From positions 1-64,000 of the forward strand of contig CM039005.1 in NCBI GenBank assembly GCA_017499595.2: a DNA stretch of 64,000 bases, written 5' to 3'. The stretch is from Psilocybe cubensis. Its lineage: Eukaryota. The notes below the pieces were generated by a model. That model did not search any database and was not told the DNA's origin. It was given only the letters and a program-made list of their open reading frames with translations. Numbering within the stretch: position 1 is the stretch's first letter; each line of letters starts with the position of its first letter. Made by a program: the position numbers and the translations under genes. Positions 1 through 29,483 of this stretch are shown here, piece after piece.

Positions 1-631
1 TCGCACCTCGCTTCGCTCGGTGCTCGCTCCCCCCCTAAACCTAAACCCTAAACCCTAAACCCTAAACCCTAACCTAACCCCAACCCTAAGCTAACTAAGT
101 CTAACCTTAGTAGGAAGTAAGGTAGGCGTGTGAACTTCCGAACGGCATGTGATTGTGAAGGGCCGGATCTAATTTAGTACATGGGAAAAGTTACTTAGTA
201 CTTCGGGAAAAGTTCCTTAGTACCGTGGAAACATTTTTGATGGACCGGATCATGAACTGTCCAATTAAGATTCACAACAATCAATCATTCTATTGTTTGA
301 TTGTTAGGTAAGGACCCAGGTAAGTTATTTATACTCTAGACATGTGAATATTCCCATGTCGCGGTTACTCGGAGCCACGTAACCAGAGTAATCTATATCC
401 ATGTGATTCACATCACAGTCAATAACCCACGATGTCAAAGAACAAAAGTGTTGGATCCACTTTTGACAGGTTACCATGTGCCACATCGACCCGTGACACT
501 CTGTTCATCAGAGACCTGTCTAACTTGACAATAAACATTGACAGATTTGTGATAGTCGGTAAGATACATGACAGCTGCGCAGCATCACTTCACGCGCTGT
601 CATCGGATGTCTAGAACATTCCTTCTAAGAA

Positions 632-698
632 TAGCCACTGAAGAGTCTATAAAGACGAAAGGGCTGGTTGTTGGGATCCCCCAACAGCCCTCTGGCTA
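632..698 (+). ncRNA. Type I hammerhead ribozyme, copy 1
   Basis: Stem I TAGCCA/TGGCTA, core CTGAAGA, stem II GTC-TATAAA-GAC, GAAA, stem III GGGCT..AGCCC, cleavage triplet CUC (cut after 692). Confidence 0.88.
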
Positions 699-766
699 CT
701 TTCCATTTAACTCCCAGTTTAAACTAGTCGCTCGCACCTCGCTTCGCTCGGTGCTCGCTCCCCCCC

Positions 767-1491
767 TAAACCCTAAACCCTAAACCCTAACCTAACCCCA
801 ACCCTAAGCTAACTAAGTCTAACCTTAGTAGGAAGTAAGGTAGGCGTGTGAACTTCCGAACGGCATGTGATTGTGAAGGGCCGGATCTAATTTAGTACAT
901 GGGAAAAGTTACTTAGTACTTCGGGAAAAGTTCCTTAGTACCGTGGAAACATTTTTGATGGACCGGATCATGAACTGTCCAATTAAGATTCACAACAATC
1001 AATCATTCTATTGTTTGATTGTTAGGTAAGGACCCAGGTAAGTTATTTATACTCTAGACATGTGAATATTCCCATGTCGCGGTTACTCGGAGCCACGTAA
1101 CCAGAGTAATCTATATCCATGTGATTCACATCACAGTCAATAACCCACGATGTCAAAGAACAAAAGTGTTGGATCCACTTTTGACAGGTTACCATGTGCC
1201 ACATCGACCCGTGACACTCTGTTCATCAGAGACCTGTCTAACTTGACAATAAACATTGACAGATTTGTGATAGTCGGTAAGATACATGACAGCTGCGCAG
1301 CATCACTTCACGCGCTGTCATCGGATGTCTAGAACATTCCTTCTAAGAATAGCCACTGAAGAGTCTATAAAGACGAAAGGGCTGGTTGTTGGGATCCCCC
1401 AACAGCCCTCTGGCTACTTTCCATTTAACTCCCAGTTTAAACTAGTCGCTCGCACCTCGCTTCGCTCGGTGCTCGCTCCCCCCCTAAACCC
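767..1491 (+). repeat. ~720-bp non-coding terminal unit (pseudo-LTR/3'UTR) of the PLE, 9 copies
   Basis: Other copies at approximately 35-773, 5165-5908, 9546-10287, 11140-11883, 12699-13436, 14221-14957, 15032-15776 and 19450-20150; begins with a degenerate telomeric tract and ends in C7-TAAACCC. Confidence 0.93.
1350..1416 (+). ncRNA. Type I hammerhead ribozyme, copy 2 (~105 nt upstream of the ORF ATG)
   Basis: Same sequence as 632-698. Confidence 0.88.
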
Positions 1492-1520
1492 AACGACTTT
1501 GCTATTATCCATCAGCCACT

Positions 1521-2676
1521 ATGTCATCTCAATACTCTGCTGCTTTCTCTCGTGCCATGTCCCCCACCCTGGACGCACTCACCCAGGCCGTCGTCAACAA
1601 CACCGTTTTCGGCGTCAACGATGAAGCAGGCCGCCATAACGCTCTGATCGACGAGCTGGCCACTGTGGTCATCAAAAAAATAGCTGAGTGCCGCTCCGTT
1701 GACCAAGTCATAGACTGCGTCTTTTTTGACTATCGTGCTGCCCTTAGGGAGTTTCTCCTCAACCTCGCATCGTGGTGCGATAAGAGGGAAACAGTCAAGG
1801 CTAGCCTCGAGCGCCTTGAATCTGCCGTTAGCGCAGGCAACACGCCCAATCGCCTTAAGGTGAAGGCACCCGAGTTCCAACTTACGAAGGAATTCGCGAA
1901 TGCCGGGTCAGCGGAGGCTCTTCGAGTCTCCACTACGTTCTCTACCGCTCGTGACGCCTTCCAAAAGGCAATTAACGACGGCGCCATTCAGGCGAAAAAG
2001 GACGAGCTGACTTTTTGGGATGATAAATGCGCACTCAACTCTTGCTACGAAGCTGCTGCCCTCATCGTTAAGGCAACTTACGATGATCGCAAATCCAGCT
2101 ACAAGCTCCCTGTTTTCTCTACAGATAACAAGGGAGTTCGACGTATAGCAGAGTGGGTAGTGTCTCCGCAAAAGAAAGCCGAATGCAGTGCGCTGCAAAC
2201 CATACTGCCGGCGATCTTTTCTCACATCAAACAAATTGTCAACATGCGCCACCGCGCTTTGGCAATTAAGATTGAGAAAAAGCGGACGACTGCGGCAACA
2301 GCCGATGTCGAGATGGCCGACGCGACCAAACCAGGTCCGTCGATTCAATCCCTTATTGATAAGGGCTTGAATGCACGTCTCAAGAAGCTCAACCTTGGAT
2401 CTGTGGGCAAGAAGGCAAGTTTTCGTAACCCTTCACCCATAATTCTGGATACTAATTACTACTCTAATTACCCAGACTTTGTCTGGCCAGAATTCATCCA
2501 AGGCTCCTCAACCTCAGGCCAAGAAAGCTGGCCCTTCGAAACCCAAGTCGTCGTCGACGCCTTCGCAACGCAAGCCTCAAACCAAGGCTTCCAACAAGGT
2601 CGACAACAAGAAGAAAGGGAAGGGGAGAGCTCCCGTCAAGAACGATCCAAAGGGAAAGGGAAAGGCAAGAGCCTAG
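1521..2676 (+). CDS. Predicted spliced ORF1 protein (~364 aa; exons 1521-2414 and 2476-2676) with Lys-rich basic tail
   Basis: AAG|GCAAGT donor at 2415, CTAAT branch-like motifs, CAG acceptor at 2475; splicing joins in frame to the ORF at 2479-2676; several differences between copies are synonymous in that frame. Confidence 0.7.
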
Positions 2677-5051
2677 ATGCGCGGTCTAATGTAGTACCTT
2701 TTACGTCGGTGAGACCCGCCTTCCCCAACTCTATTCCTGACGATATACTCACCATGACTAAAACAGACGCAGTTTCTTTCGTACACTTACATACTCCAAT
2801 ATCATTCTTGTTGGCTGGCCAGTATCGTAGTAGTGTACATTGTAGTCCTGGTGTTTCTGTCCCTGTTGATGTAGCAAACGATCTCTCTCTCGGACTTAAT
2901 TATATGTTTTTCACTCTGCCTTCTAAAAGTCTGATCATGCAAGCATGGAATGATTTCCAACGAAGAATAAGATGGCGTATCTATTTTTTGTTTAAGGAAG
3001 GCATGAATAAACCTTTTGATCCAGATTATGGAGTAAGCTCAAAAAAGAAAGAGAAACCTCCTGTATTACCGCAATATATGGAACTTGGCCTTTCGATGGG
3101 ACGTCGGTACGTGCAACGCACGATCGCAAGTATCCCGGAAGAAGCCCTTACGGAGATGCGAAAGCACGCGTTCTCTCCTAAAAGGGACAAGATCCGTAAG
3201 TTTCTTATCGATAACAACTATGTTATTACGATGACAGATAAGAATCTTGGCCTCGCGGTGTCTGAACGCGACTGGATATTAAGGAATGAGCTCAATCTTC
3301 TTGAAGATGAACGTAATTACGAAGAGTTAGAATTCGAAGTTGCGCAAGAAGTTATGAAGAGCAAAATGATTCAGATGCAAACGCTCGCACGTACTGTCGA
3401 AGATGAACATCTGTTTCTATTTGAACTTGGGTTGTCTCGATTCTTTCTATCGAATGTACCGGAAGACGGATCATCGTTCAAGTATCCTCAATTTCATGGT
3501 ATACCTAAAATCCACAAGAAACCTACTGGATTTAGGCCCATAATTCCGTGTCACTCTGTAGTATTTAATCCTGCAGCCAAGTTTGTATCAAAAGAGCTTA
3601 AGCCGATTATTAAATCGACTCCTTCAATCATACACGGAACGAAGGATCTCTTTACGAGATTAAGCCAATTGCGTATAGACTCCAAAAGACAATGGTATTT
3701 TGTCACTGGAGATGTAGTTGCTTTCTATCCCAATATTCCGTTGGACTTGTGCATCGAAATCGTTTGTAGTATGTACGAGGAATGGTTACTCAACGCTTCG
3801 GAAGAAAACACTGCATTAGCCCATATTAATCCAAATTCGTTAGAGAATAACTTGGTTAAATTGGGCATCTTTAAACGTGCTATCGAGATTGGCAATACGC
3901 AATTGATAACACAACATGGGTCTAGATATTTTAGACAAAAAAATGGCCTCGCAATGGGCGTCGCGGATTCTCCGGACCTTGCTAACCTCTTTGGAGCCCA
4001 TTTTGAAATAAAGTCAAAAATCTTAGACCACCCAAACGTGGCCTTCTATGGAAGGTACATCGACGATTGTTTCGCAATTGTTTACGCCGAGTCCGAAGCA
4101 CTTGCACTTAATCTTATTAAAGAAACAATAAAGTTCGATGGTTGTGTTATCGAATGGGCTGTTTCCTCGTCGGGATGTCAATTTCTCGATGCTTTCATAT
4201 TCAAGGAGTCTGGAAAACTTCATTGGAAGCCTTTTGTCAAGACAGGAAACAACCGAGAACGAGTTCCATGGGTATCACATCATCCTTTGGACGTCAAACG
4301 TGGCGTCTACATTGGAGAGTTATCCAGGTTAGCCGTGCTATGTAGTACCAAGGAAATCTACATCGGAGCAATTAGAGACCTTAACGCTCTCTATTTGATG
4401 CGCGGTTATCCCGAAAACCTAGTCATATCTTGGTGTAAGAAGAATATACAAGAACGTTGGGAAAAGCGATTCGCTTTACGAGTCGCAGAGCACGACGAAT
4501 CCATTCTTGTACTTAAAACCAGATTTGATCAGGTATGGAATTGGTTTTCAGCTGCTGAACTTGGAAAAACTGTTACCGAGTACTGGTCGGCATGGTATGA
4601 ACATGCCGAGAAAGGTTTGTATAGTGCAGACTCGTCCAGACCCCTTATCAAACCAGATCCAAATTACGTTCACGACCTCGATGATGTTCGCCCGGAGCTG
4701 TTCACACAGATCCTCGTGGACGGAGAAACTGAGTTCGTACCGGATTTGAGGAAGATAGGACTACTCGGAAGTCGTTGGATAGTATCGCGAAAACGCAATA
4801 CTAATCTTTTCGACCTTGCAAATGTGTGGAAGAAAACAGTCTTTCGTAAACTGGATGAAGACATCGCTGAAAAAGGTGGTGTTGTTCCCGAAACTCAAAA
4901 CGTTAATGAAACTTATCATTCTGCTTTAGTTGAAGCTGCTGAGCAGATAAGTATCGAAAGTGATAACGAGATAATACTTCATAGACGTTCAATCTCACAA
5001 GAGAGGGAACATCCAGAATTTGGCAGAATATCCAAATCTTACAACCGATGA
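1521..5051 (+). CDS. PLE ORF1-reverse transcriptase fusion, 1176 aa (copy 1, full length)
   Basis: RT motifs FHGIPKIHK..FRPII, GDVVAFYPNIP, QKNGLAMGVADSPDLANLF, RYIDD; helical N-terminal ~300 aa; no endonuclease motif at the C-terminus. Confidence 0.92.
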   Translation: MSSQYSAAFSRAMSPTLDALTQAVVNNTVFGVNDEAGRHNALIDELATVVIKKIAECRSVDQVIDCVFFDYRAALREFLLNLASWCDKRETVKASLERLESAVSAGNTPNRLKVKAPEFQLTKEFANAGSAEALRVSTTFSTARDAFQKAINDGAIQAKKDELTFWDDKCALNSCYEAAALIVKATYDDRKSSYKLPVFSTDNKGVRRIAEWVVSPQKKAECSALQTILPAIFSHIKQIVNMRHRALAIKIEKKRTTAATADVEMADATKPGPSIQSLIDKGLNARLKKLNLGSVGKKASFRNPSPIILDTNYYSNYPDFVWPEFIQGSSTSGQESWPFETQVVVDAFATQASNQGFQQGRQQEEREGESSRQERSKGKGKGKSLDARSNVVPFTSVRPAFPNSIPDDILTMTKTDAVSFVHLHTPISFLLAGQYRSSVHCSPGVSVPVDVANDLSLGLNYMFFTLPSKSLIMQAWNDFQRRIRWRIYFLFKEGMNKPFDPDYGVSSKKKEKPPVLPQYMELGLSMGRRYVQRTIASIPEEALTEMRKHAFSPKRDKIRKFLIDNNYVITMTDKNLGLAVSERDWILRNELNLLEDERNYEELEFEVAQEVMKSKMIQMQTLARTVEDEHLFLFELGLSRFFLSNVPEDGSSFKYPQFHGIPKIHKKPTGFRPIIPCHSVVFNPAAKFVSKELKPIIKSTPSIIHGTKDLFTRLSQLRIDSKRQWYFVTGDVVAFYPNIPLDLCIEIVCSMYEEWLLNASEENTALAHINPNSLENNLVKLGIFKRAIEIGNTQLITQHGSRYFRQKNGLAMGVADSPDLANLFGAHFEIKSKILDHPNVAFYGRYIDDCFAIVYAESEALALNLIKETIKFDGCVIEWAVSSSGCQFLDAFIFKESGKLHWKPFVKTGNNRERVPWVSHHPLDVKRGVYIGELSRLAVLCSTKEIYIGAIRDLNALYLMRGYPENLVISWCKKNIQERWEKRFALRVAEHDESILVLKTRFDQVWNWFSAAELGKTVTEYWSAWYEHAEKGLYSADSSRPLIKPDPNYVHDLDDVRPELFTQILVDGETEFVPDLRKIGLLGSRWIVSRKRNTNLFDLANVWKKTVFRKLDEDIAEKGGVVPETQNVNETYHSALVEAAEQISIESDNEIILHRRSISQEREHPEFGRISKSYNR

Positions 5052-5766
5052 AAAGAATACTAGCGCTTAAGGCGTAAAGCATTAGAAAAAAACCCTAACC
5101 GTAAGTATTCCTTGCTATAAAGTAACAAACATCTACTTACAAGCAACACATTGGATTGAATAGCTAAACCTAAACCTAAACCCTAAACCCTAAACCCTAA
5201 ACCCTAACCTAACCCCAACCCTAAGCTAACTAAGTCTAACCTTAGTAGGAAGTAAGGTAGGCGTGTGAACTTCCGAACGGCATGTGATTGTGAAGGGCCG
5301 GATCTAATTTAGTACATGGGAAAAGTTACTTAGTACTTCGGGAAAAGTTCCTTAGTACCGTGGAAACATTTTTGATGGACCGGATCATGAACTGTCCAAT
5401 TAAGATTCACAACAATCAATCATTCTATTGTTTGATTGTTAGGTAAGGACCCAGGTAAGTTATTTATACTCTAGACATGTGAATATTCCCATGTCGCGGT
5501 TACTCGGAGCCACGTAACCAGAGTAATCTATATCCATGTGATTCACATCACAGTCAATAACCCACGATGTCAAAGAACAAAAGTGTTGGATCCACTTTTG
5601 ACAGGTTACCATGTGCCACATCGACCCGTGACACTCTGTTCATCAGAGACCTGTCTAACTTGACAATAAACATTGACAGATTTGTGATAGTCGGTAAGAT
5701 ACATGACAGCTGCGCAGCATCACTTCACGCGCTGTCATCGGATGTCTAGAACATTCCTTCTAAGAA

Positions 5767-5833
5767 TAGCCACTGAAGAGTCTATAAAGACGAAAGGGCT
5801 GGTTGTTGGGATCCCCCAACAGCCCTCTGGCTA
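5767..5833 (+). ncRNA. Type I hammerhead ribozyme, copy 3
   Basis: Same sequence as 632-698. Confidence 0.88.
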
Positions 5834-5898
5834 CTTTCCATTTAACTCCCAGTTTAAACTAGTCGCTCGCACCTCGCTTCGCTCGGTGCTCGCTCCCC

Positions 5899-5970
5899 CC
5901 CTAAACCCTAAACCCTAAACCCTAAACCCTAAACCCTAAACCCTAAAACCCTAACCCTAAACCCTAAACC
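5899..5970 (+). repeat. Interstitial telomeric tract (TAAACCC)n, i.e. TTTAGGG type
   Basis: About 10 units including TAAAACCC and TAACCC variants, at an element junction. Confidence 0.95.
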
Positions 5971-8900
5971 GTCAACAACACTGTCTTCGGCGTCAACGAT
6001 GAAGCAGGCCGCCACAACGCTCTTATCGACGAGCTGGCCACTGTAGTCATCAAAAAAATAGCTGAGTGCCGCTCCGTTGACCAAGTCATAGACTGCGTCT
6101 TTTTTGACTATCGTGCTGCCCTCAGGGAGTTTCTCCTCAACCTCGCATCGTGGTGCGACAAGAGGGAAACAGTCAAGGCTAGCCTCGAGCGCCTTGAATC
6201 TGCCGTTAGCGCAGGCAACACGCCCAATCGCCTTAAGGTGAAGGCACCCGAGTTCCAACTTACGAAGGAATTCGCGGATGCCGGGTCAGCGGAGGCTCTT
6301 CGAGTCTCCACTACGTTCTCTTCCGCTCGTGATGCCTTCCAAAAGGCAATTAACGACGGCGCCGTTCAGGCGAAAAAGGACGAGCTGGCTTTTTGGGATG
6401 ATAAATGCGCGCTCAACTCTTGCTACGAAGCTGCTGCCCTCATCGTTAAGGCAACTTACGATGATCGCAAATCCAGCTACAAGCTCCCTGTTTTCTCTAC
6501 AGACAACAAGGGAGTTCGACGTATAGCAGAGTGGGTAGTGTCTCCGCAAAAGAAAGCCGAATGCAGTGCGCTGCAAACTATACTGCCGGCGATCTTTTCT
6601 CATATCAAACAGATTGTCAACATGCGCCACCGCGCCTTGGCAATTAAGATTGAGAAAAAGCGGACGACTGCGGCAACAGCCGATGTCGAGATGGCCGATG
6701 CGACCAAACCAGGTCCATCGATTCAATCCCTTATTGATAAGGGCTTGAATGCACGTCTCAAAAAGCTCAACCTTGGATCTGTGGGCAAGAAGGCAAGTTT
6801 TCGTAACCCTTCACCCATAATTCTGGACACTAATTATTACTCTAATTACCCAGACTTTGTCTGGCCAGAATTCGTCCAAGGCTCCTCAACCTCAGGCCAG
6901 GAAAGCTGGCCCTTCGAAACCCAAGTCGTCGTCGACGCCTTCGCAGAGGAAGCCTCAAACCAAGGCTTCCAACAAGGTCGACAACAAGAAGAAAGGGAAG
7001 GGGAGAGCTCCCGTCAAGAACAACGATCCAAAGGGAAAGGGAAAGGCAAGAGCCTAGACGCGCGGTCTACTGTAGCATCATTTACGTCGGTGAGACCCGC
7101 CTTCCCCAACTCTATTCCTGACGATATACTCACCATGACTAAAACAGACGCAGTTTCTTTTGTACACCTCAATACCCCGATTTCATTCTTATTGGCTGGC
7201 CAGTATAGATCTAGTGTACACTGTAGTCCTGGTGTTTCGGTCCCTGTTGATGTAGCAAATGATTTATCTCTTGGACTCAATTATATGTTTTTTACACTGC
7301 CTTCTAAAAGTCTGATCATGCAAGCATGGAATGATTTTCAACGAAGAATAAGATGGCGTATCTATTTTTTGTTTAAAGAAGGCATGAATAAACCTTTCGA
7401 TCCAGACTATGGAGTAAGCTCTAAAAAGAAAGAGAAACCTCCAATGTTACCGCAATTTATGGAACTTGGCCTTTCAATGGGACGTCGGTACGTTATTAAA
7501 ACGATCGCAAGTATCCCGGAAGAAGCCCTTAAAGAGATGCGAAAGCACGCGTTCTCTCCTAAAAGGGACAAGATCCAAAAGTTTCTTTTCGATAACAACT
7601 ATGTTATTACGATGACAGATAAGAATCTTGGCCTCGCGGTGTCTGAACGCGACTGGATATTAAGGAATGAGCTCAATCTTCTTGAAGATGAACGCAACTA
7701 CGAAGAGTTAGAATTCGAAGTTGCGCAAGAAGTTATGAAGAGCAAAATGATTCAGATGCAAACTCTCGCACGTACCGTCGAAGATGAACATCTGTTTCTA
7801 TTTGAACTTGGGTTGTCTCGATTCTTTCTATCGAATGTACCGGAAGACGGATCATCGTTCAAGTATCCTCAATTTCATGGTATACCTAAAATCCACAAGA
7901 AACCTACTGGATTTAGGCCCATAATTCCGTGTCACTCTGTAGTATTTAATCCTGCAGCCAAGTTTGTATCAAAAGAGCTTAAGCCGATTATTAAATCGAC
8001 TCCTTCAATCATTCACGGAACGAAGGATCTCTTTACGAGATTAAGCCAATTGCGTATAGACCCCAAACGACAATGGTATTTTGTCACCGGGGATGTAGTT
8101 GCTTTCTATCCCAATATTCCGTTGGACTTGTGCATCGAAATCGTTTGTAATATGTACGAGGAATGGTTACTCAACGCTTCGGAAGAAAACACTGCATTAG
8201 CCCATATTAATCCAAATTCGTTAGAGAATAACTTGGTTAAATTGGGCATCTTTAAACGTGCTATCGAGATTGGCAATACGCAATTGATAACACAACATGG
8301 GTCTAGATATTTTAGACAAAAAAATGGCCTCGCAATGGGCGTCGCGGATTCTCCGGACCTTGCTAACCTCTTTGGAGCCCATTTTGAAATAAAGTCAAAA
8401 ATCTTAGACCACCCAAACGTGGCCTTCTATGGAAGGTACATCGACGATTGTTTCGCAATTGTTTACGCCGAGTCCGAAGCACTTGCACTTAATCTTATTA
8501 AAGAAACAATAAAGTTCGATGGTTGTGTTATCGAATGGGCTGTTTCCTCGTCGGGATGTCAATTTCTCGATGCTTTCATATTCAAGGAGTCTGGAAAACT
8601 TCATTGGAAGCCATTTGTCAAGACAGGAAACAACCGAGAACGAGTTCCATGGGTATCACATCATCCTTTGGACGTCAAACGTGGCGTCTACATTGGAGAG
8701 TTATCCAGGTTAGCCGTGCTATGTAGTACCAAGGAAATCTACATCGGAGCAATTAGAGACCTTAACGCTCTCTATTTGATGCGCGGTTATCCCGAAAACC
8801 TAGTCATGTCTTGGTGTAAGAAGAATATACAAGAACGTTGGGAAAAGCGATTCGCTTTACGAGTCGCAGAGCACGACGAATCCATTCTTGTACTTAAAAC

Positions 8901-9432
8901 CAGATTTGATCAGGTATGGAATTGGTTTTCAGCTGCTGAACTTGGAAAGACTGTTACCGAGTACTGGTCGGCATGGTATGAACATGCCGAGAAAGGTCTG
9001 TATAGTGCAGACTCGTCCAGACCCCTTATCAAACCAGATCCAAATTACGTTCACGACCTCGATGATGTTCGCCCGGAGCTGTTCACACAGATCCTCGTGG
9101 ACGGAGAAACTGAGTTCGTACCGGATTTGAGGAAGATAGGACTACTCGGAAGTCGTTGGATAGTATCGCGAAAGCGCAATACTAATCTTTTCGACCTTGC
9201 AAATGTGTGGAAGAAAACAGTCTTTCGTAAACTGGATGAAAACATCGCTGAAAAAGGTGGTGTTGTTCCCGAAACTCAAAACGTTAATGAAACTTATCAT
9301 TCTGCTCTAGTTGAAGCTGCTGAACAGATAAGTATCGAAAGTGATAACGAGATAATACTTCATAGACGTTCAATCTCACAAGAGAGGGAACATCCAGAAT
9401 TCGGCAGAATATCCAAATCTTACAACCGATGA
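5971..9432 (+). CDS. PLE ORF1-RT, copy 2, missing the first ~24 codons
   Basis: Homologous to copy 1 from VNNTVFG onward; preceded directly by the telomeric tract 5899-5970; no native ATG. Confidence 0.88.
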   Translation, partial: VNNTVFGVNDEAGRHNALIDELATVVIKKIAECRSVDQVIDCVFFDYRAALREFLLNLASWCDKRETVKASLERLESAVSAGNTPNRLKVKAPEFQLTKEFADAGSAEALRVSTTFSSARDAFQKAINDGAVQAKKDELAFWDDKCALNSCYEAAALIVKATYDDRKSSYKLPVFSTDNKGVRRIAEWVVSPQKKAECSALQTILPAIFSHIKQIVNMRHRALAIKIEKKRTTAATADVEMADATKPGPSIQSLIDKGLNARLKKLNLGSVGKKASFRNPSPIILDTNYYSNYPDFVWPEFVQGSSTSGQESWPFETQVVVDAFAEEASNQGFQQGRQQEEREGESSRQEQRSKGKGKGKSLDARSTVASFTSVRPAFPNSIPDDILTMTKTDAVSFVHLNTPISFLLAGQYRSSVHCSPGVSVPVDVANDLSLGLNYMFFTLPSKSLIMQAWNDFQRRIRWRIYFLFKEGMNKPFDPDYGVSSKKKEKPPMLPQFMELGLSMGRRYVIKTIASIPEEALKEMRKHAFSPKRDKIQKFLFDNNYVITMTDKNLGLAVSERDWILRNELNLLEDERNYEELEFEVAQEVMKSKMIQMQTLARTVEDEHLFLFELGLSRFFLSNVPEDGSSFKYPQFHGIPKIHKKPTGFRPIIPCHSVVFNPAAKFVSKELKPIIKSTPSIIHGTKDLFTRLSQLRIDPKRQWYFVTGDVVAFYPNIPLDLCIEIVCNMYEEWLLNASEENTALAHINPNSLENNLVKLGIFKRAIEIGNTQLITQHGSRYFRQKNGLAMGVADSPDLANLFGAHFEIKSKILDHPNVAFYGRYIDDCFAIVYAESEALALNLIKETIKFDGCVIEWAVSSSGCQFLDAFIFKESGKLHWKPFVKTGNNRERVPWVSHHPLDVKRGVYIGELSRLAVLCSTKEIYIGAIRDLNALYLMRGYPENLVMSWCKKNIQERWEKRFALRVAEHDESILVLKTRFDQVWNWFSAAELGKTVTEYWSAWYEHAEKGLYSADSSRPLIKPDPNYVHDLDDVRPELFTQILVDGETEFVPDLRKIGLLGSRWIVSRKRNTNLFDLANVWKKTVFRKLDENIAEKGGVVPETQNVNETYHSALVEAAEQISIESDNEIILHRRSISQEREHPEFGRISKSYNR

Positions 9433-10142
9433 AAAGAATACTAGCGCGTAAGGCGTAAAGCATTAGAAAAAAACCCTAACCGTAAGTATTCCTTGCTATA
9501 AAGAAACAAACATCTACTTACAAGCAACACTTTGGATTAAATAGCTAAACCTAAACCCTAAACCCTAAACCCTAAACCCTAACCTAACCCCAACCCTAAG
9601 CTAACTAAGTCTAACCTTAGTAGGAAGTAAGGTAGGCGTGTGAACTTCCGAACGGCATGTGATTGTGAAGGGCCGGATCTAATTTAGTACATGGGAAAAG
9701 TTACTTAGTACTTCGGGAAAAGTTCCTTAGTACCGTGGAAACATTTTTGATGGACCGGATCATGAACTGTCCAATTAAGATTCACAACAATCAATCATTC
9801 TATTATTTGATTGTTAGGTAAGGACCCAGGTAAGCTATTTATACTCTAGACATGTGAATATTCCCATGTCGCGGTTACTCGGAGCCACGTAACCAGAGTA
9901 ATCTATATCCATGTGATTCACATCACAGTCAATAACCCACGATGTCAAAGAACAAAAGTGTTGGATCCACTTTTGACAGGTTACCATGTGCCACATCGAC
10001 CCGTGACACTCTGTTCATCAGAGACCTGTCTAACTTGACAATAAACATTGACAGATTTGTGATAGTCGGTAAGATACATGACAGCTGCGCAGCATCACTT
10101 CACGCGCTGTCATCGGATGTCTAGAACATTCCTTCTAAAGAA

Positions 10143-10209
10143 TAGCCACTGAAGAGTCTATAAAGACGAAAGGGCTGGTTGTTGGGATCCCCCAACAGCC
10201 CTCTGGCCT
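10143..10209 (+). ncRNA. Type I hammerhead ribozyme, copy 4
   Basis: Core intact; distal stem I variant TGGCCT. Confidence 0.85.
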
Positions 10210-10277
10210 TCTTTCTATTTCAAACTCACAGTTTAAACTAGTCGCTCGCACCTCGCTTCGCTCGGTGCTCGCTCCCC

Positions 10278-10361
10278 CCCTAAACCCTAAACCCTAACCC
10301 TAAACCCTAAACCCTAAACCCTAAACCCTAAACCCTAAACCCTAAACCCTAAACCCTAACC
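10278..10361 (+). repeat. Interstitial telomeric tract (TAAACCC)n
   Basis: About 12 units with TAACCC variants, at a junction. Confidence 0.95.
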
Positions 10362-11026
10362 CTCTCTATTTGATGCGCGGTTATCCCGAAAACCTAGTCA
10401 TATCTTGGTGTAAGAAGAATATACAAGAACGTTGGGAAAAGCGATTCGCTTTACGAGTCGCAGAGCACGACGAATCCATTCTTGTACTTAAAACCAGATT
10501 TGATCAGGTATGGAATTGGTTTTCAGCTGCTGAACTTGGAAAAACTGTTACCGAGTACTGGTCGGCATGGTATGAACATGCCGAGAAAGGTTTGTATAGT
10601 GCAGACTCGTCCAGACCCCTTATCAAACCAGATCCAAATTACGTTCACGACCTCGATGATGTTCGCCCGGAGCTGTTCACACAGATCCTCGTGGACGGAG
10701 AAACTGAGTTCGTACCGGATTTGAGGAAGATAGGACTACTCGGAAGTCGTTGGATAGTATCGCGAAAACGCAATACTAATCTTTTCGACCTTGCAAATGT
10801 GTGGAAGAAAACAGTCTTTCGTAAACTGGATGAAGACATCGCTGAAAAAGGTGGTGTTGTTCCCGAAACTCAAAACGTTAATGAAACTTATCATTCTGCT
10901 TTAGTTGAAGCTGCTGAGCAGATAAGTATCGAAAGTGATAACGAGATAATACTTCATAGACGTTCAATCTCACAAGAGAGGGAACATCCAGAATTTGGCA
11001 GAATATCCAAATCTTACAACCGATGA
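10362..11026 (+). pseudogene. 5'-truncated PLE ORF (C-terminal ~220 aa)
   Basis: Matches 4387-5051; capped by the telomeric tract 10278-10361. Confidence 0.9.
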
Positions 11027-11741
11027 AAAGAATACTAGCGCTTAAGGCGTAAAGCATTAGAAAAAAACCCTAACCGTAAGTATTCCTTGCTATAAAGTAA
11101 CAAACATCTACTTACAAGCAACACATTGGATTTAATAGCTAAACCTAAACCTAAACCCTAAACCCTAAACCCTAAACCCTAACCTAACCCCAACCCTAAG
11201 CTAACTAAGTCTAACCTTAGTAGGAAGTAAGGTAGGCGTGTGAACTTCCGAACGGCATGTGATTGTGAAGGGCCGGATCTAATTTAGTACATGGGAAAAG
11301 TTACTTAGTACTTCGGGAAAAGTTCCTTAGTACCGTGGAAACATTTTTGATGGACCGGATCATGAACTGTCCAATTAAGATTCACAACAATCAATCATTC
11401 TATTGTTTGATTGTTAGGTAAGGACCCAGGTAAGTTATTTATACTCTAGACATGTGAATATTCCCATGTCGCGGTTACTCGGAGCCACGTAACCAGAGTA
11501 ATCTATATCCATGTGATTCACATCACAGTCAATAACCCACGATGTCAAAGAACAAAAGTGTTGGATCCACTTTTGACAGGTTACCATGTGCCACATCGAC
11601 CCGTGACACTCTGTTCATCAGAGACCTGTCTAACTTGACAATAAACATTGACAGATTTGTGATAGTCGGTAAGATACATGACAGCTGCGCAGCATCACTT
11701 CACGCGCTGTCATCGGATGTCTAGAACATTCCTTCTAAGAA

Positions 11742-11808
11742 TAGCCACTGAAGAGTCTATAAAGACGAAAGGGCTGGTTGTTGGGATCCCCCAACAGCCC
11801 TCTGGCTA
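11742..11808 (+). ncRNA. Type I hammerhead ribozyme, copy 5
   Basis: Same sequence as 632-698. Confidence 0.88.
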
Positions 11809-11911
11809 CTTTCCATTTAACTCCCAGTTTAAACTAGTCGCTCGCACCTCGCTTCGCTCGGTGCTCGCTCCCCCCCTAAACCCTAAACCCTAAACCCTAA
11901 ACCCCCCCTAA

Positions 11912-12585
11912 ACCTTAACGCTCTCTATTTGATGCGCGGTTATCCCGAAAACCTAGTCATGTCTTGGTGTAAGAAGAATATACAAGAACGTTGGGAAAAG
12001 CGATTCGCTTTACGAGTCGCAGAGCACGACGAATCCATTCTTGTACTTAAAACCAGATTTGATCAGGTATGGAATTGGTTTTCAGCTGCTGAACTTGGAA
12101 AGACTGTTACCGAGTACTGGTCGGCATGGTATGAACATGCCGAGAAAGGTCTGTATAGTGCAGACTCGTCCAGACCCCTTATCAAACCAGATCCAAATTA
12201 CGTTCACGACCTCGATGATGTTCGCCCGGAGCTGTTCACACAGATCCTCGTGGACGGAGAAACTGAGTTCGTACCGGATTTGAGGAAGATAGGACTACTC
12301 GGAAGTCGTTGGATAGTATCGCGAAAGCGCAATACTAATCTTTTCGACCTTGCAAATGTGTGGAAGAAAACAGTCTTTCGTAAACTGGATGAAAACATCG
12401 CTGAAAAAGGTGGTGTTGTTCCCGAAACTCAAAACGTTAATGAAACTTATCATTCTGCTCTAGTTGAAGCTGCTGAACAGATAAGTATCGAAAGTGATAA
12501 CGAGATAATACTTCATAGACGTTCAACCTCACAAGAGAGGGAACATCCAGAATTCGGCAGAATATCCAAATCTTACAACCGATGA
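11912..12585 (+). pseudogene. 5'-truncated PLE ORF (C-terminal ~220 aa)
   Basis: Matches the 3' end of copy 2 (VMSW and DENI variants). Confidence 0.9.
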
Positions 12586-13294
12586 AAAGAATACTAGCGC
12601 GTAAGGCGTAAAGCATTAGAAAAAAACCCTAACCGTAAGTATTCCTTGCTATAAAGTAACAAACATCTACTTACAAGCAACACTTTGGATTAAATAGCTA
12701 AACCTAAACCCTAAACCCTAAACCCTAAACCCTAACCTAACCCCAACCCTAAGCTAACTAAGTCTAACCTTAGTAGGAAGTAAGGTAGGCGTGTGAACTT
12801 CCGAACGGCATGTGATTGTGAAGGGCCGGATCTAATTTAGTACATGGGAAAAGTTACTTAGTACTTCGGGAAAAGTTCCTTAGTACCGTGGAAACATTTT
12901 TGATGGACCGGATCATGAACTGTCCAATTAAGATTCACAACAATCAATCATTCTATTGTTTGATTGTTAGGTAAGGACCCAGGTAAGCTATTTATACTCT
13001 AGACATGTGAATATTCCCATGTCGCGGTTACTCGGAGCCACGTAACCAGAGTAATCTATATCCATGTGATTCACATCACAGTCAATAACCCACGATGTCA
13101 AAGAACAAAAGTGTTGGATCCACTTTTGACAGGTTACCATGTGCCACATCGACCCGTGGCACTCTGTTCATCAGAGACCTGTCTAACTTGACAATAAACA
13201 TTGACAGATTTGTGATAGTCGGTAAGATACATGACAGCTGCGCAGCATCACTTCACGCGCTGTCATCGGATGTCTAGAACATTCCTTCTAAGAA

Positions 13295-13361
13295 TAGCCA
13301 CTGAAGAGTCTATAAAGACGAAAGGGCTGGTTGTTGGGATCCCCCAACAGCCCTCTGGCTT
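13295..13361 (+). ncRNA. Type I hammerhead ribozyme, copy 6
   Basis: Core intact; stem I 3' variant TGGCTT. Confidence 0.85.
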
Positions 13362-13433
13362 CTTTCCATTTTAACTCCCAGTTTAAACTAGTCGCTCGCA
13401 CCTCGCTTCGCTCGGTGCTCGCTCCCCCCCTAA

Positions 13434-14107
13434 ACCTTAACGCTCTCTATTTGATGCGCGGTTATCCCGAAAACCTAGTCATGTCTTGGTGTAAGAAGAA
13501 TATACAAGAACGTTGGGAAAAGCGATTTGCTTTACGAGTCGCAGAGCACGACGAATCCATTCTTGTACTTAAAACCAGGTTTGATCAGGTATGGAATTGG
13601 TTTTCAGCTGCTGAACTTGGAAAGACTATTACCGAGTACTGGTCGGCATGGTATGAACATGCCGAGAAAGATCTGTATAGTGCAGACTCGTCCAGACCCC
13701 TTATCAAACCAGATCCAAATTACGTTCACGACCTCGATGATGTTCGCCCGGAGCTGTTCACACAGATCCTCGTGGACGGAGAAACTGAGTTCGTACCGGA
13801 TTTGAGGAAGATAGGACTACTCGGAAGTCGTTGGATAGTATCGCGAAAGCGCAATACTAATCTTTTCGACCTTGCAAATGTGTGGAAGAAAACAGTCTTT
13901 CGTAAACTGGATGAAGACATCGCTGAAAAAGGTGGTGTTGTTCCCGAAACTCAAAACGTTAATGAAACTTATCATTCTGCTTTAGTTGAAGCTGCTGAAC
14001 AGATAAGTATCGAAAGTGATAACGAGATAATACTTCATAGACGTTCAATCTCACAAGAGAGGGAACATCCAGAATTCGGCAGAATATCCAAATCTTACAA
14101 CCGATGA
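13434..14107 (+). pseudogene. 5'-truncated PLE ORF (C-terminal ~220 aa)
   Basis: Joined directly to the upstream unit at TAAACC|TTAAC with no extra telomeric repeats. Confidence 0.9.
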
Positions 14108-14815
14108 AAAGAATACTAGCGCGTAAGGCGTAAAGCATTAGAAAAAAACCCTAACCGTAAGTATTCCTTGCTACAAAGTAACAAACATCTACTTACAAGC
14201 AACACATTGGATTAAATAGCTAAACCTAAACCTAAACCCTAAACCCTAAACCCTAAGCCCTAACCTAACCCCAACCCTAAGCTAACTAAGTCTAACCTTA
14301 GTAGGAAGTAAGGTAGGCGTGTGAACTTCCGAAAGGCATGTGATTGTGAAGGGCCGGATCTAATTTAGTACATGGGAAAAGTTACTTAGTACCTCGGGAA
14401 AAGTTCCTTAGTACCGTGGAAACATTTTTGATGGACCGGATCATGAACTGTCCAATTAAGATTCACAACAATCAATCAATTGATTGTTAGGTAAGGACCC
14501 AGGTAAGCTATTTATACTCTTGACATGAGAATATTCCCATGTCACGGTTACTCGGAGCCACGTAACCAGAGTATTTTATATCCATGTGATTCACATCACA
14601 GTCAATAACCCACGATGTCAAAGAACAAAAGTGTTGGATCCACTTTTGACAGGTTACCATGTGCCACATCGACCCGTGACACTCTGTTCATCAGAGATCT
14701 ATCTAACTTGACAATAAACATTGACAGATTTGTGATAGTCGGTAAGATACATGACAGCTGCGCAGCATCACTTCACGCGCTGTCATCGGATGTTCCAGAA
14801 CATTCCTTCTAAGAA

Positions 14816-14882
14816 TAGCCACTGAAGAGTCTATAAAGACGAAAGGGCTGGCTGCTGATAACAATCAACAGCTCTCTGGCTA
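14816..14882 (+). ncRNA. Type I hammerhead ribozyme, copy 7 (variant stem III)
   Basis: Core intact; the stem III tip TGGG-ATCC-CCCA is replaced by TGAT-AACA-ATCA, which keeps pairing. Confidence 0.88.
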
Positions 14883-14947
14883 CTTTCCATTTAACTCACA
14901 GTTTAAATTAGTCGCTCGCACCTCGCTTCGCTCGGTGCTCGCTCCCC

Positions 14948-14997
14948 CCCTAAACCCTAAACCCTAAACCCTAAACCCTAAACCCTAAACCCTAAAC
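14948..14997 (+). repeat. Interstitial telomeric tract (TAAACCC)n
   Basis: About 7 units at a junction. Confidence 0.95.
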
Positions 14998-15633
14998 ATC
15001 TACTTACAAGCAACACATTGGATTGAATAGCTAAACCTAAACCTAAACCCTAAACCCTAAACCCTAAGCCCTAACCTAACCCCAACCCTAAGCTAACTAA
15101 GTCTAACCTTAGTAGGAAGTAAGGTAGGCGTGTGAACTTCCGAACGGCATGTGATTGTGAAGGGCCGGATCTAATTTAGTACATGGGAAAAGTTACTTAG
15201 TACTTCGGGAAAAGTTCCTTAGTACCGTGGAAACATTTTTGATGGACCGGATCATGAACTGTCCAATTAAGATTCACAACAATCAATCATTCTATTGTTT
15301 GATTGTTAGGTAAGGACCCAGGTAAGCTATTTATACTCTAGACATGTGAATATTCCCATGTCGCGGTTACTCGGAGCCACGTAACCAGAGTAATCTATAT
15401 CCATGTGATTCACATCACAGTCAATAACCCACGATGTCAAAGAACAAAAGTGTTGGATCCACTTTTGACAGGTTACCATGTGCCACATCGACCCGTGACA
15501 CTCTGTTCATCAGAGACCTGTCTAACTTGACAATAAACATTGACAGATTTGTGATAGTCGGTAAGATACATGACAGCTGCGCAGCATCACTTCACGCGCT
15601 GTCATCGGATGTCTAGAACATTCCTTCTAAGAA

Positions 15634-15700
15634 TAGCCACTGAAGAGTCTATAAAGACGAAAGGGCTGGTTGTTGGGATCCCCCAACAGCCCTCTGGCCT
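15634..15700 (+). ncRNA. Type I hammerhead ribozyme, copy 8
   Basis: Core intact; TGGCCT variant. Confidence 0.85.
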
Positions 15701-15805
15701 TCTTTCCATTTAACTCACAGTTTAAACAAGTCGCTCGCACCTCGCTTCGCTCGGTGCTCGCTCCCCCCCTAAACCCAACGACTTTGCTATTACCCAACAG
15801 CTACC

Positions 15806-19336: not shown

Positions 19337-19999
19337 AAAGAATACTAGCGCGTAAGGCGTAAAGCATTAGAAAAAAACCCTAACCGTAAGTATTCCTTGC
19401 TACAAAGTAACAAACATCTACTTACAAGCAACACATTGGATTAAATAGCTAAACCTAAACCTAAACCCTAAACCCTAAACCCTAAGCCCTAACCTAACCC
19501 CAACCCTAAGCTAACTAAGTCTAACCTTAGTAGGAAGTAAGGTAGGCGTGTGAACTTCCGAACGGCATGTGATTGTGAAGGGCCGGATCTAATTTAGTAC
19601 ATGGGAAAAGTTACTTAGTACTTCGGGAAAAGTTCCTTAGTACCGTGGAAACATTTTTGATGGACCGGATCATGAACTGTCCAATTAAGATTCACAACAA
19701 TCAATCAGTCTATTGTTTGATTGTTAGGTAAGGACCCAGGTAAGCTATTTATACTCTAGACATGTGAATATTCCCATGTCGCGGTTACTCGGAGCCACGT
19801 AACCAGAGTACTCTATATCCATGTGATTCACATCACAGTCAATAACCCACGATGTCAAAGAACAAAAGTGTTGGATCCATTTTTGACAGGTTACCATGTG
19901 CCACATTGACAGATTTGTGATAGTCGGTAAGATACATGACAGCTGCGCAGCATCACTTCACGCGCTGTCATCGGATGTCTAGAACATTCCTTCTAAGAA

Positions 20000-20066
20000 T
20001 AGCCACTGAAGAGTCTATAAAGACGAAAGGGCTGGTTGTTGGGATCCCCCAACAGCCCTCTGGCCT
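20000..20066 (+). ncRNA. Type I hammerhead ribozyme, copy 9
   Basis: Core intact; TGGCCT variant. Confidence 0.85.
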
Positions 20067-20148
20067 TCTTTCCATTTAACTCACAGTTTAAACAAGTCGC
20101 TCGCACCTCGCTTCGCTCGGTGCTCGCTCCCCCCCTAAACCCTAAACC

Positions 20149-23288: not shown

Positions 23289-23644
23289 CCCCGTTTTTTG
23301 TTTGAAAAATGTTTGGAAGTTGGGTGTCTGGGTGAGGGTTGGGAACAGGATAGGTCCACGAACGATGCTGGGGGTGGAAGGGGTCTATATCTGAGAACGA
23401 CGCCCTACGCTCTGCGATGGAAGGCCCAACCAATTGCCCTTCAGAAGACGTATAGGGGGTTAAAGAAGAGATCGATAGTTGATTGACTGTCGTTCCGATA
23501 AGAGGACAGGGCTGAATTAATCAGACACCTGAGTGCCCGATAGTCCGGAGGCGTCCCAATCGAACATCGCGCCCGACACAATCGACGGCGGCAAGGCGTT
23601 GTGCGCAAGCATATCGGGAGGCCAGGTCGTGTGTAACGCGCACA

Positions 23645-29475: not shown

Positions 29476-29483
29476 GACAGGCG

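Follow-up and report, generated by a model that had tools for sequence, protein, structure and literature searches.

The array at the start of Psilocybe cubensis contig CM039005.1 (GCA_017499595.2) raises the question of what RNA templated its retroelement copies, as the copied DNA runs past the predicted cut site of the ribozyme that it carries. The window, that is, the whole stretch analyzed, comprised 64,000 nucleotides (positions 1-64,000, + strand). In its first part, 1-20153, an endonuclease-lacking Penelope-like (Coprina-type) retroelement forms a chromosome-end array, with the features collected in Table 1. An earlier note on this DNA had proposed a circular or multimeric RNA template.

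Table 1. Features of the chromosome-end array, in window coordinates
Feature	Position	Strand	Remarks
Further unit's end, clipped by the window edge	1-41	+	100% identity to 732-772 and 1450-1490
Solo 728-bp unit	46-773	+	100% identity to 764-1491 and 5181-5908
5′ unit (pseudo-LTR), full-length element 1	764-1491	+	
Type I hammerhead	1350-1416	+	predicted cut between C1410 and U1411
Post-cut tail, 81 nt	1411-1491	+	motif CCCTAAACCC at 1482-1491
ORF leader AACGACTTTGC, directly after the motif	1492-1520	+	same junction at 15776/15777
Single ORF, element 1	1521-5051	+	1176 aa
Internal degenerate telomere-like tract	5164-5224	+	at the start of the element 1 3′ unit
3′ unit, element 1	5181-5908	+	ribozyme cut after 5827; then telomere repeats 5899-5970
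5′-truncated copy	5970-10287	+	starts at q1592, unit at its end; lineage other than element 1
Three short copies, ~1.53 kb each	10364-14957	+	10364-11883, 11901-13437, 13438-14957
Full-length element 2	14994-20142	+	from self-comparison
3′UTR piece of element 2, 54 nt	14994-15047	+	then 5′ unit 15048-15776, then leader
Intact ORF, element 2	15806-19336	+	1176 aa
3′ unit, element 2	19466-20142	+	52-bp deletion

Self-comparison of the window recovered nine copies of the 728-bp unit (46-773, 764-1491, 5181-5908, 9556-10287, 11156-11883, 12709-13437, 14237-14957, 15048-15776, and 19466-20142) besides the 41-nt unit end at 1-41. Four of them (46-773, 764-1491, 5181-5908, and 11156-11883) are 100% identical, which points to very recent activity. 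Telomere repeats come after the units ending at 5908, 10287, 11883, 14957, and 20142; the motif at 773 is followed by another unit, and that at 13437 by position q4381 of the next short copy. The unit 46-773 joins its neighbors via telomere-like repeats, the number of which is unequal at its two junctions. The short copies all begin at q4381-4389 and are each closed by a unit, and copies 2 and 3 abut with no telomere repeats between them. The internal tract at 5164-5224 has an equivalent in relatives, and 3′ ends were located at such a tract in 0 of the 7 places where it comes after 3′UTR sequence. Element 2 is followed by 2.5 telomere repeats, the host telomere repeat being of the TTTAGGG type, and unique DNA begins from ~20154; a Pfam search with the flanking ORFs at 20149-29551 returned no match.

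The ORF product is 99% identical to a P. cubensis protein, for which PF00078 is precomputed. The whole 1176-aa protein had no match in Pfam; RVT_1 scored 28.9 bits (E = 1.1e-6), slightly below the 29.6 cut-off. The reverse transcriptase motif YIDD occupies residues 847-850, and the DKN/DKG motif that marks Penelope-type reverse transcriptases, ahead of the RT core (here TDKNLG, residues 572-577), was invariant across 18 aligned relatives. Pfam searches with the entire protein and with its C-terminal 176 residues gave no GIY-YIG endonuclease match. Further, copies at a chromosome end, a reverse-complement telomere motif at the 3′ end, and 5′ truncations capped by telomere repeats were all observed, as expected of a Coprina-type telomeric element. 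These domain features and the layout suggest the Coprina assignment. The closest named relatives were agaric proteins, one from Lentinula edodes, the species from which the Coprina-1_LeEd element was named (PMC13159263). The ORFs of elements 1 and 2 show 86 synonymous vs. 33 non-synonymous codon differences (3.8% divergence); both are intact and under purifying selection.

A type I hammerhead, predicted to be self-cleaving, is present in 9/9 units; eight are identical, and the unit at 14237-14957 has an altered helix III that still folds. As read from the sequence, stem I pairs UAGCCA (1350-1355) with UGGCUA (1411-1416), and between them lie the core CUGAAGA (1356-1362), stem II (1363-1374), GAAA (1375-1378), helix III (1379-1408), and U1409 and C1410 before the cut. 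The type I core (CUGANGA...GAAA, with a cleavage triplet ending U-H) is intact in all nine units and is surrounded by three helices of 6, 4, and at least 6 bp, helix I being open. Among 29 related motifs, 2-5 pair types were counted per helix position, except for an invariant G-C closing stem II, a count to be read with strand bias as the control as the search pattern already required at least 3-4 bp per helix. In the Rfam covariance-model search no family reached its gathering score, the best sub-threshold ones being the RAGATH-1 hammerhead (29.1 vs. 56.3 bits, E = 0.012) and type III (19.5 vs. 48.5). RNAalifold predicted no pairs on a MAFFT alignment of the 29 ribozymes because that alignment is not structure-aware, and pairs were instead counted from anchored positions. 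The minimum-energy fold of 1340-1500, in which GAAAG pairs with CUUUC of the tail, contains no hammerhead junction and was weighed neither way.

All nine units run 81 nt past the cut to CCCTAAACCC (71 nt from the cut to the motif start), confirming the earlier observation that the copies extend beyond the ribozyme cut and end at the motif, while correcting its distance of ~75 nt. In the tail, the first 35 nt are variable; a hairpin (GCACC/GGUGC, 1452-1472) and a C-run come next, followed by CCCTAAACCC. With at most one mismatch, this motif occurred 72 times vs. 2.58 expected, always on the + strand and in 71 cases within 1-20149. No letters were added or lost at the cut site in the nine units, variation starting 3-4 nt after it. 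As had been noted, the motif runs natively into the ORF leader at 1491 and 15776, and the junction is identical in both full-length elements; a variant of it was the loose end in an independent DNA run. Also as noted, 3′UTR sequence precedes element 2 back to 14994, which corresponds to q5127, and the succession of 3′UTR piece, unit, leader, body, and unit in this element amounts to a template of ~1.18 genome units. Since all units pass the cut, the motif runs into the leader, and element 2 has 54 nt ahead of its unit, the template spanned the cut site without a break and exceeded one genome unit. Furthermore, as the priming motif is located on the 3′ side of the cut, RNA cut at both ribozymes cannot alone have templated the observed copies, so that the objection raised against a linear cleaved monomer is upheld. 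To this extent the proposed circular or multimeric template stands, while a circle and an uncut linear or multimeric RNA are not separated by these data.

The layout recurs across relatives. In 34 of 80 related loci, 38 hammerhead-like motifs were found, all on the ORF strand and none antisense. The distance from the cut to the first telomere-like motif was 42-75 nt in 24/30 cases, and for 22/40 ribozymes the homologous start codon followed 81-143 nt downstream. A motif-to-leader junction containing one telomere unit was kept in 22 ribozyme-to-ORF contexts, down to ~35% protein identity. Across the window and the 80 related loci, 0/54 post-cut tails lacked their ribozyme or started exactly at the cut, and no copy with two bodies was found; two very short copies with a partial tail (L015 and L022) stop before the cut, not at it. 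Both units were present in five related contigs, in four of which they were 95.8-99.8% alike. Thirteen of 80 metagenome contigs start and finish on the same exact 80-139 nt, and permuted contigs also exist (e.g., L001, L014, and L032); both were rejected as evidence of circles, being assembler output for a unit-body-unit structure with like units (cf. PMC3846280). The first 30 nt of the tail in relatives are complementary to the stem II 3′ strand plus CGAAA, the tail-core duplex averaging -7.25 kcal/mol vs. -5.40 for shuffled tails (17 clusters, p = 0.0005), and such pairing could suppress cleavage. Covariation between tail and core was marginal (matched -7.25 vs. mismatched -6.35, p = 0.066, 10/17 clusters), and in the window's own element the complementary stretch was just 5 bp, its -5.0 kcal/mol not surpassing the background; in the relatives L008 and L018 it spans 8 bp.

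The flanking units of element 1 are identical at 728/728 positions, and those of element 2 are mutual nearest neighbors (3 substitutions and 1 indel vs. at least 5+1 to any other unit). Hence, in the likeness test suggested in the earlier note, the 5′ and 3′ units of one element were closer to each other than to those of other elements in 2/2 full-length elements. The element 2 units share two exclusive variants, an additional C following the position that matches 5830 and, at 5860, an A; the variants originally named are indeed shared, but CTAAGCCCT also occurs in the unit at 14237 and is not exclusive. The deletion reported between the two units was found as well, being the 52-bp one alongside the three substitutions. 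Between elements 1 and 2 the units differ by 0.7-1.2%, far less than the ORF, which diverges by 3.8% and has 48 synonymous differences within codons 1-300. A single site separates short copy 1 from element 1, 12 sites separate short copy 2 from the truncated copy, and short copy 3 is 35-37 sites away from every other copy. That the three form one non-autonomous lineage was rejected, each being nearest to a different long copy. The truncated copy combines an element-1-like 5′ ORF with an element-2-like tail, so the tail variant and the 5′ ORF block are not linked, contrary to what a breakpoint at the cut would lead one to expect.

RNA evidence came from assembled contigs of 4 of 7 runs, with 2-3 RNA contigs, and contigs cannot show ends or circles. 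No back-joints were present among the contigs of the four runs, and no weight was given to parts lacking coverage. One RNA-library contig (1289-1465) crosses the cut site, DNA carry-over being possible. Two runs labelled with this species and presumed to be RNA contained almost none of the element's words, and one of these two, X6, yielded a single contig. This 351-nt contig starts within ~3 nt of the cut and continues through the tail to CCCTAAA and unrelated sequence; its start was not accepted as a cut 5′ end, as contigs show no ends.

Our preferred reading, held tentatively and at short of an even chance, is that a linear transcript exceeding one genome unit served as the template; it would begin upstream of the 5′ unit, extend to the motif of the 3′ unit, and have its ribozymes uncut or held off. 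The retroelement would lengthen the chromosome end through pairing of the chromosome's G-rich 3′ overhang with the one CCCUAAACCC motif, 81 nt beyond the hammerhead cut, and the reverse transcriptase would then copy the RNA toward its 5′ end; every DNA copy would end at the motif because it is primed there. The selected role of the ribozyme would lie in the 5′ copy, 81-143 nt upstream of the start codon, where it would trim read-through into translatable mRNA and so split the RNA pool, cut RNA being translated and intact RNA copied. The uniform end point of the nine units, the identical motif-to-leader junctions together with the start of element 2 upstream of its unit, the sense-only hammerheads, and the conserved cut-to-motif and ribozyme-to-start-codon spacings in relatives all agree with such a transcript, which needs no strand displacement; the cut-crossing RNA contig also agrees, and tail-core pairing in relatives could hold off cleavage. 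The description of cleavage as 'auxiliary' in telomeric Penelope-like elements (PMC6431247) and the hammerheads used for translation in fungal RNA viruses (PMC13725137) lend further support. However, that contig fits a resealed circle equally or may be DNA carry-over, no transcript start or end is visible in contig data, and the pairing is at background in this element and its covariation marginal. Moreover, a template cleaved at its 3′ copy would be lost, and those fungal Penelope-like hammerheads that have a long helix III are reported to be stable active monomers (PMC4209133), so perhaps only a minority of transcripts would be intact. Plain inheritance of both units also fails to explain the flanking-unit likeness here and in four of the five contigs, and an extra step is assumed in which frequent renewal of the upstream unit keeps it matched to the downstream one; this may be realignment of nascent DNA between repeated telomere-like motifs.

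That likeness is what a ribozyme-sealed circle, the first option of the earlier note, would predict, a reading we consider possible though by no means probable. A transcript with two hammerheads would release a 4417-nt monomer (1411 to 5827), whose 5′-OH and 2′,3′-cyclic phosphate ends would be joined by the reverse reaction of the ribozyme or a host tRNA ligase, with an expected junction of ...CAGCCCUC/UGGCUA...; the telomere overhang would prime at the by then internal motif, more than one round would be copied, and solo units would derive from 0.72-kb circles or truncated copies. Flanking units would be identical at birth, as in element 1 and, nearly, in the mutually nearest element 2 units with their two exclusive tail variants; starts could fall anywhere, even beyond one round (cf. 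element 2), and none at the cut, as for the 54 tails. On a circular map the divergence of elements 1 and 2 forms one low and one high block, whereas on a linear map the low 5′ unit is separated from the low 3′ part. The circle makes promoter and terminator logic unneeded, gives the conserved catalytic core a use, and has been proposed for Penelope-like elements (PMC4209133), related retrozymes being reported as circular RNAs (PMC4209133, PMC7761336). On the other hand, the RNA data, contigs only, contain no circular RNA; round two must displace first-round DNA from the RNA; the element 2 margin is small (3+1 vs. 5+1 differences) in a sample of two elements; two-body copies are absent from the window and the 80 loci; the tail variant of the truncated copy is not linked to its 5′ ORF block; and the unequal repeat numbers at the two unit-unit junctions mean that these do not come from simple rounds of a single 0.72-kb circle. 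It is possible, though less likely than not, that the reverse transcriptase, a telomerase relative, uses either a sealed 4.4-kb circular RNA or telomerase-like realignment between the motifs bounding the 728-nt unit, one priming giving unit-unit-unit-body-unit (1-5908, units 100% identical). Two extra routes may exist, template switching between repeated telomere motifs or ends, and DNA-level exchange. For the former, the enzyme would prime near the 5′ end of linear monomers cut at both ribozymes, run off at the cut, and jump to a 3′ end, be it that of the monomer being copied or of a different one, rebuilding the ribozyme without ligation. Like the circle, this accounts for the anatomy; jumps between templates have been invoked in the case of Penelope elements (PMC3846280), and L015 and L022, with just a portion of the tail, mean that early stops are common. 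It is nevertheless very improbable, since each round would stop at the RNA 5′ end and starts at the cut should be common, yet none was seen among the 54 tails, the short copies end before the cut, and no letters were gained or lost there. Subtelomeres recombine frequently, and unequal crossing-over, gene conversion, or break-induced replication after insertion could have produced the unit likeness and solo arrays from an ordinary transcript ending near the motif. The four identical units and the much lower divergence of the units than of the ORF fit this origin, which we regard as improbable: the motif-to-leader junction kept in 22 contexts means that the upstream unit belongs to the copied structure, and adjacent copies of different lineages speak for additions in trans, not local duplication.

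Telomeric Penelope-like elements with telomere-complement repeats immediately downstream of the hammerhead fold have been described, cleavage being termed 'auxiliary' (PMC6431247), and more-than-unit copying of circular RNA was proposed in 2014 (PMC4209133). Neither the layout nor the circular-RNA idea is therefore new, and the finding as it stands rediscovers a known layout and a known hypothesis. Reviews call the hammerhead's job in Penelope-like elements unknown or a mystery (PMC7761336, PMC8557442). With two intact ORFs and four identical units in a culturable fungus, the array is a clean natural test bed, and the 81 nt between priming site and cut mean that cut, uncut, and resealed RNAs give distinct, readable junctions. 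The outcome would bear on template choice and reuse by telomerase-like enzymes; if the circle or realignment reading were true, the element would be an autonomous retroelement replicating via a protein-coding circular RNA, and a living intermediate between retrotransposon and telomerase with a giant template.

The Psilocybe element resembles Coprina and Athena (PMC8557442, PMC13159263) and Terminons (PMC6431247), as described there, in its single reverse transcriptase ORF with DKN and no GIY-YIG, its head-to-tail chromosome-end arrays with 5′-truncated copies parted by short telomere repeats, and its flanking direct repeats with a type I hammerhead and a short reverse-complement telomere motif downstream, at the 3′ end. 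In Terminons the motif is placed 'immediately downstream' of the fold (PMC6431247), whereas in the Psilocybe element it follows a hairpin, at 71-81 nt from the cut (42-75 nt in relatives). The fungal Penelope-like hammerheads of PMC4209133 are likewise of type I and located in flanking repeats of telomeric elements; their helix III is large, helices I and II are short, and loop-loop contacts are not evident. The Serpula lacrymans ribozyme was assayed there, while the Psilocybe one is predicted from sequence, below Rfam gathering scores. Unlike in Coprina, Athena, and Terminons, the host repeat is TTTAGGG-type, and a non-exhaustive literature search found no account of this family in Psilocybe.

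HeT-A and TART of Drosophila (cf. PMC5537684) are also telomeric, 'promoting in tandem'; they belong to the non-LTR class, have poly(A) ends, and carry no ribozyme, and their host lacks telomerase repeats. As here, they form head-to-tail arrays with 3′ ends toward the centromere, an upstream neighbor's sequence serving the downstream element. In contrast, the Psilocybe element is Penelope-like with a hammerhead, not non-LTR with poly(A). HDV-like ribozymes of R2 and other LINEs process 5′ ends, allowing translation. In fungal RNA viruses, a type I hammerhead in the 5′-UTR is reported to be needed for cap-independent translation, cut and uncut RNAs coexisting in vivo (PMC13725137). The Psilocybe ribozyme similarly lies ~100 nt upstream of a start codon, as do these 5′-end ribozymes with their mixed cut and uncut RNA, but it also occurs just upstream of the 3′ priming site, where cutting would harm.

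Retrozymes are described as non-autonomous hammerhead elements spreading via circular RNA (PMC4918200, PMC7761336, bioRxiv 10.64898/2026.07.22.740005), with tandem hammerhead units derived from a Penelope-like terminal repeat, which the solo 728-bp units at 46-1491 resemble. Unlike retrozymes, the units here gave no circular RNA among the contigs, are joined via telomere repeats of varying number, and occur at the chromosome end only; these solo units may simply be 5′-truncated copies.

A type I hammerhead was readable at 1350–1416, in the second of the nine 728-bp units, and cleavage was predicted from this sequence reading between C1410 and U1411. No Rfam family reached its gathering score for 1350–1416; the top sub-threshold alignment, the RAGATH-1 hammerhead, gave the same helices. 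The motif was present in 9/9 units and identical in eight, and the ninth carried nine changes in helix III, which folds nonetheless (a comparable variant helix III in an independent DNA run is a loose end). Every unit extended past the cut up to the priming motif CCCTAAACCC (1482–1491 in the second unit), as the earlier note had claimed, the distance being 81 nt rather than ~75 nt. What came after the motif depended on the unit: telomere repeats, another unit, the next short copy at q4381 (q, position in the self-comparison), or the leader AACGACTTTGC, which stood directly after it in both full-length elements. Element 2, the proximal one, was indeed longer than one unit, starting in 3′UTR sequence 54 nt upstream of its own 5′ unit. 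In every copy the RNA template ran unbroken over the cut site to the priming motif, and for element 2 it measured ~1.18 genome units (782 + 4417 nt). RNA cut at both ribozymes is insufficient alone to produce them, in agreement with the earlier argument that a linear cleaved monomer could not have been their template. The template probably had an intact or resealed ribozyme site and exceeded one unit.

CCCTAAACCC matched the window 72 times (2.58 expected), always on the + strand, and 71 of these matches fell within 1–20149. C-strand telomere repeats, (CCCTAAA)n, lay on the + strand of 1–20153, and by the usual telomere polarity the chromosome end is to the left. The array, mapped by self-comparison of the window and by junction sequences, ended at unique, G+C-richer DNA from ~20154. 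In the first 10 kb of this DNA (20154–30000) G+C was 52–61%, and Pfam gave no match on its long ORFs; a 284-aa ORF at 59388–60242 on the − strand was composed of ankyrin repeats.

Features of the telomeric array, distal to proximal (unit end, solo units and element 1, truncated copy, three short copies, element 2)
Feature	Position	Strand
Unit end	1–41	+
Solo 728-bp unit	46–773	+
Second 728-bp unit, directly continuous with leader; 5′ unit of full-length element 1	764–1491	+
ORF of element 1, 1176 aa	1521–5051	+
Third unit, after ORF and 3′UTR; 3′ unit of full-length element 1	5181–5908	+
Telomere repeats between element 1 and truncated copy		+
Copy truncated at q1592	5970–10287	+
Short copy 1, start ~q4381–4389	10364–11883	+
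Short copy 2, start ~q4381–4389	11901–13437	+
Short copy 3, start ~q4381–4389	13438–14957	+
Telomere repeats between short copy 3 and element 2		+
Full-length element 2	14994–20142	+

Eighteen relatives were aligned, and one scan of metagenome contigs with this alignment yielded 80 loci (L001–L080). The strict type I hammerhead pattern matched 38 motifs in 34/80 loci, all on the ORF strand, and none on the opposite strand; helix sequences differed among related hammerheads with pairing preserved, although the search pattern itself demanded minimum pairing. The first telomere-like motif followed the cut by 42–75 nt in 24 of 30 dereplicated cases, the exceptions being one with an earlier chance match and five without a motif within 140 nt. 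A homologous start codon lay 81–143 nt past the cut for 22 of 40 ribozymes, the others preceding telomere repeats, another unit or other DNA. Because it recurs across related loci, the layout of ribozyme, tail, one telomere unit, and leader or telomere is old and general in the family, and the motif-to-leader junction is native, as previously claimed, and no product of two chance insertions. The priming motif matched the host repeat type across the window element and relatives; the repeat was the 7-letter CCCTAAA in the window and some relatives and the 6-letter CCCTAA in others (loci named for repeat type: L005, L009, L010, L038, L041, L047, L053, L054, L057, and L061). Also conserved among relatives was a telomere-like tract right behind the ORF, at the unit start. 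In the window this degenerate tract occupied 5164–5224 (equivalents in L002, L006, L030, L031, L034, L041, L057, L061, L079, and L080) and contained more repeats than the true priming motif, while none of the seven window places where it follows 3′UTR sequence had it as a copy end. Since solo units begin inside such tracts, they may seed a new telomere where synthesis or erosion stops.

Comparison of the flanking units showed that those of element 1 were 728/728 identical, as were two other units, while those of element 2 were 3 substitutions and 1 indel apart vs. at least 5 and 1 to any other unit. Two tail variants occurred in the units of element 2 and nowhere else, and these units differed by the deletion reported earlier (52 bp); one variant previously named as common to them also occurred in another unit, at 14237. 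Paired units in related contigs, which as metagenome assemblies can be chimeric, were 99.8% (L074), 98.6% (L024), 98.1% (L047), 95.8% (L038), and 89.6% (L009) identical. Judged from these sequences, variants track the element rather than the 5′ or 3′ position, so both units must be renewed from a single source fairly often; this fits a circle, a switch between repeated motifs, or DNA-level exchange.

Elements 1 and 2 differed at 2/647 sites upstream of the cut, by 3 substitutions and 1 indel in the 81-nt tail, at 4/29 leader sites, by 7–11% in the first third of the ORF, and by 0–2% from ~3160 to the end, with 48 synonymous differences in codons 1–300 vs. 8 in codons 751–1176. On a circular map this is a single diverged block with its left edge at the cut site; however, the truncated copy joined an element-1-like 5′ ORF with an element-2-like tail, and the tail may simply be hypervariable. 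Divergence was mosaic, the grouping of the three long copies shifting along the ORF, and this points to recombination between lineages. Among the long copies (764–5908, 15048–20142, and 5970–10287), divergence was 5–11% in parts of 1660–3160 and 0–2% from 3160 to the unit end.

As to the copied RNA, the alternatives of the earlier note, a circle or an uncleaved multimer, are supported insofar as a continuous, more-than-unit template is needed, while the evidence gathered fits both circle and uncut linear RNA. All 54 post-cut tails of the window and loci had a ribozyme upstream, and none started at the cut site. This absence is neutral between circle and uncut RNA, but speaks against cut monomers copied by run-off and template jumps, which are very improbable; purely DNA-level processes, with which unit renewal is compatible, are unlikely, and both are less likely than uncut transcript or circle. 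An uncut linear transcript is slightly preferred to a sealed circle, because no ligation or strand displacement is needed and a translation role accounts for ribozyme conservation. Tentatively, the RNA pool would be split, with the uncut transcript as the template. In all 5′ contexts the start codon follows the ribozyme by ~100 nt, and there a role in translation could conserve the catalytic core without need of a circle; for fungal RNA viruses, a 5′-UTR type I hammerhead is reported as required for cap-independent translation, with cut and uncut RNAs coexisting (PMC13725137). Renewal of the 5′ unit would be an additional assumption for the uncut transcript and is the strongest point of a sealed circular template, which does require ligation and strand displacement and is possible though rather doubtful. 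A metatranscriptome-library contig crossed the cut (1289–1465) and another, from a run guessed to be RNA, began ~3 nt from it; as assembled contigs, neither reveals ends, circles or transcription.

Thirteen of the 80 loci carried the same exact 80–139 nt at both contig ends, with a period of 4.07–5.03 kb (L002, L008, L016, L019, L027, L028, L031, L033, L035, L037, L041, L067, and L080). Such a cyclic assembly path is what unit-body-unit with like units would give, and is no evidence for circular molecules.

The ORF matched a 'reverse transcriptase domain-containing protein' of Psilocybe cubensis at 99% identity and had 238 relatives at E ≤ 0.001, chiefly, among the best 120 listed, from 3–6-kb contigs. 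It carried the DKN motif and YIDD, a borderline RVT_1 match (28.9 bits vs. a cut-off of 29.6) and, by Pfam, no endonuclease domain. The two full-length ORFs were both intact and differed synonymously at 86 codons and non-synonymously at 33. Such features are described for Coprina/Athena, endonuclease-deficient, telomere-attached Penelope-like elements (PMC8557442, PMC13159263), and the element is probably of this type. In Terminons/Athena, reverse-complement telomere repeats are placed 'immediately downstream' of a 3′-terminal hammerhead fold, and cleavage is regarded as auxiliary (PMC6431247); elsewhere, cut RNAs were proposed to be ligated to circles that template more-than-unit copies, accounting for tandem repeats (PMC4209133), and the ribozyme's role is still called unknown in PMC7761336 and PMC8557442. 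A non-exhaustive literature search turned up nothing published about the element in Psilocybe. Because layout and circular-template idea were already published, the finding correctly rediscovers them in a new host, the observation being confirmed and the earlier interpretation partly supported; the idea is not new, and the array is a good system for settling an open question.

The three short copies started within 9 nt of each other (10364, 11914–11916, and 13438). Despite this common start they belong to different lineages: over 1517 nt, 1 site separated short copy 1 from element 1, 12 sites separated short copy 2 from the truncated copy, and 35–37 sites separated short copy 3 from all others. 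The shared start suggests that the RNA has a site-specific 5′ end, that the enzyme meets a strong stop, or that healing is favoured at a telomere-like CCTTAAC in this place. Very short copies between telomere repeats (11901–11913; L015:2730–2780; L022:4524–4552) retained only the last 13, ~48, and ~29 nt of tail plus motif, respectively, and resemble additions that were primed at the motif and then aborted. In an independent DNA run, X3, mapped on 830–5160, summed word depth was 2930–4307 for the unit vs. 328–1692 for the body (~2–13 times), in keeping with a large number of truncated copies and solo units.

Within the first 30 nt of the tail, relatives carried a complement of up to 8 bp (L008, L018) to the stem II 3′ strand plus CGAAA. 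The complementary stretch lay 6–15 nt past the cut in L004, L008, L018, L031, L047, L071, and others, and at 1417–1421 in the window, whose own complement was just 5 bp. Mean tail-core duplex energy was −7.25 kcal/mol vs. −5.40 for shuffled tails (p = 0.0005, 17 sequence clusters) and ~−5.5 for neighbouring real sequence, and covariation was only suggestive (p = 0.066). Such pairing could serve to switch off cleavage or to clamp the cut ends. A hairpin at 1452–1472 had equivalents in L001, L004, L008, L018, L034, L042, L056, and L071. It lies 5–12 nt upstream of the telomere motif, with a conserved centre (CGCUUCGCUCG-like or a CUUCGG loop) and an outer stem of lineage-specific sequence and kept pairing, and could be an enzyme binding site, positioned like the template-flanking helix of telomerase RNA. 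Of 25 tails, 8 folded better than shuffles at z < −2.
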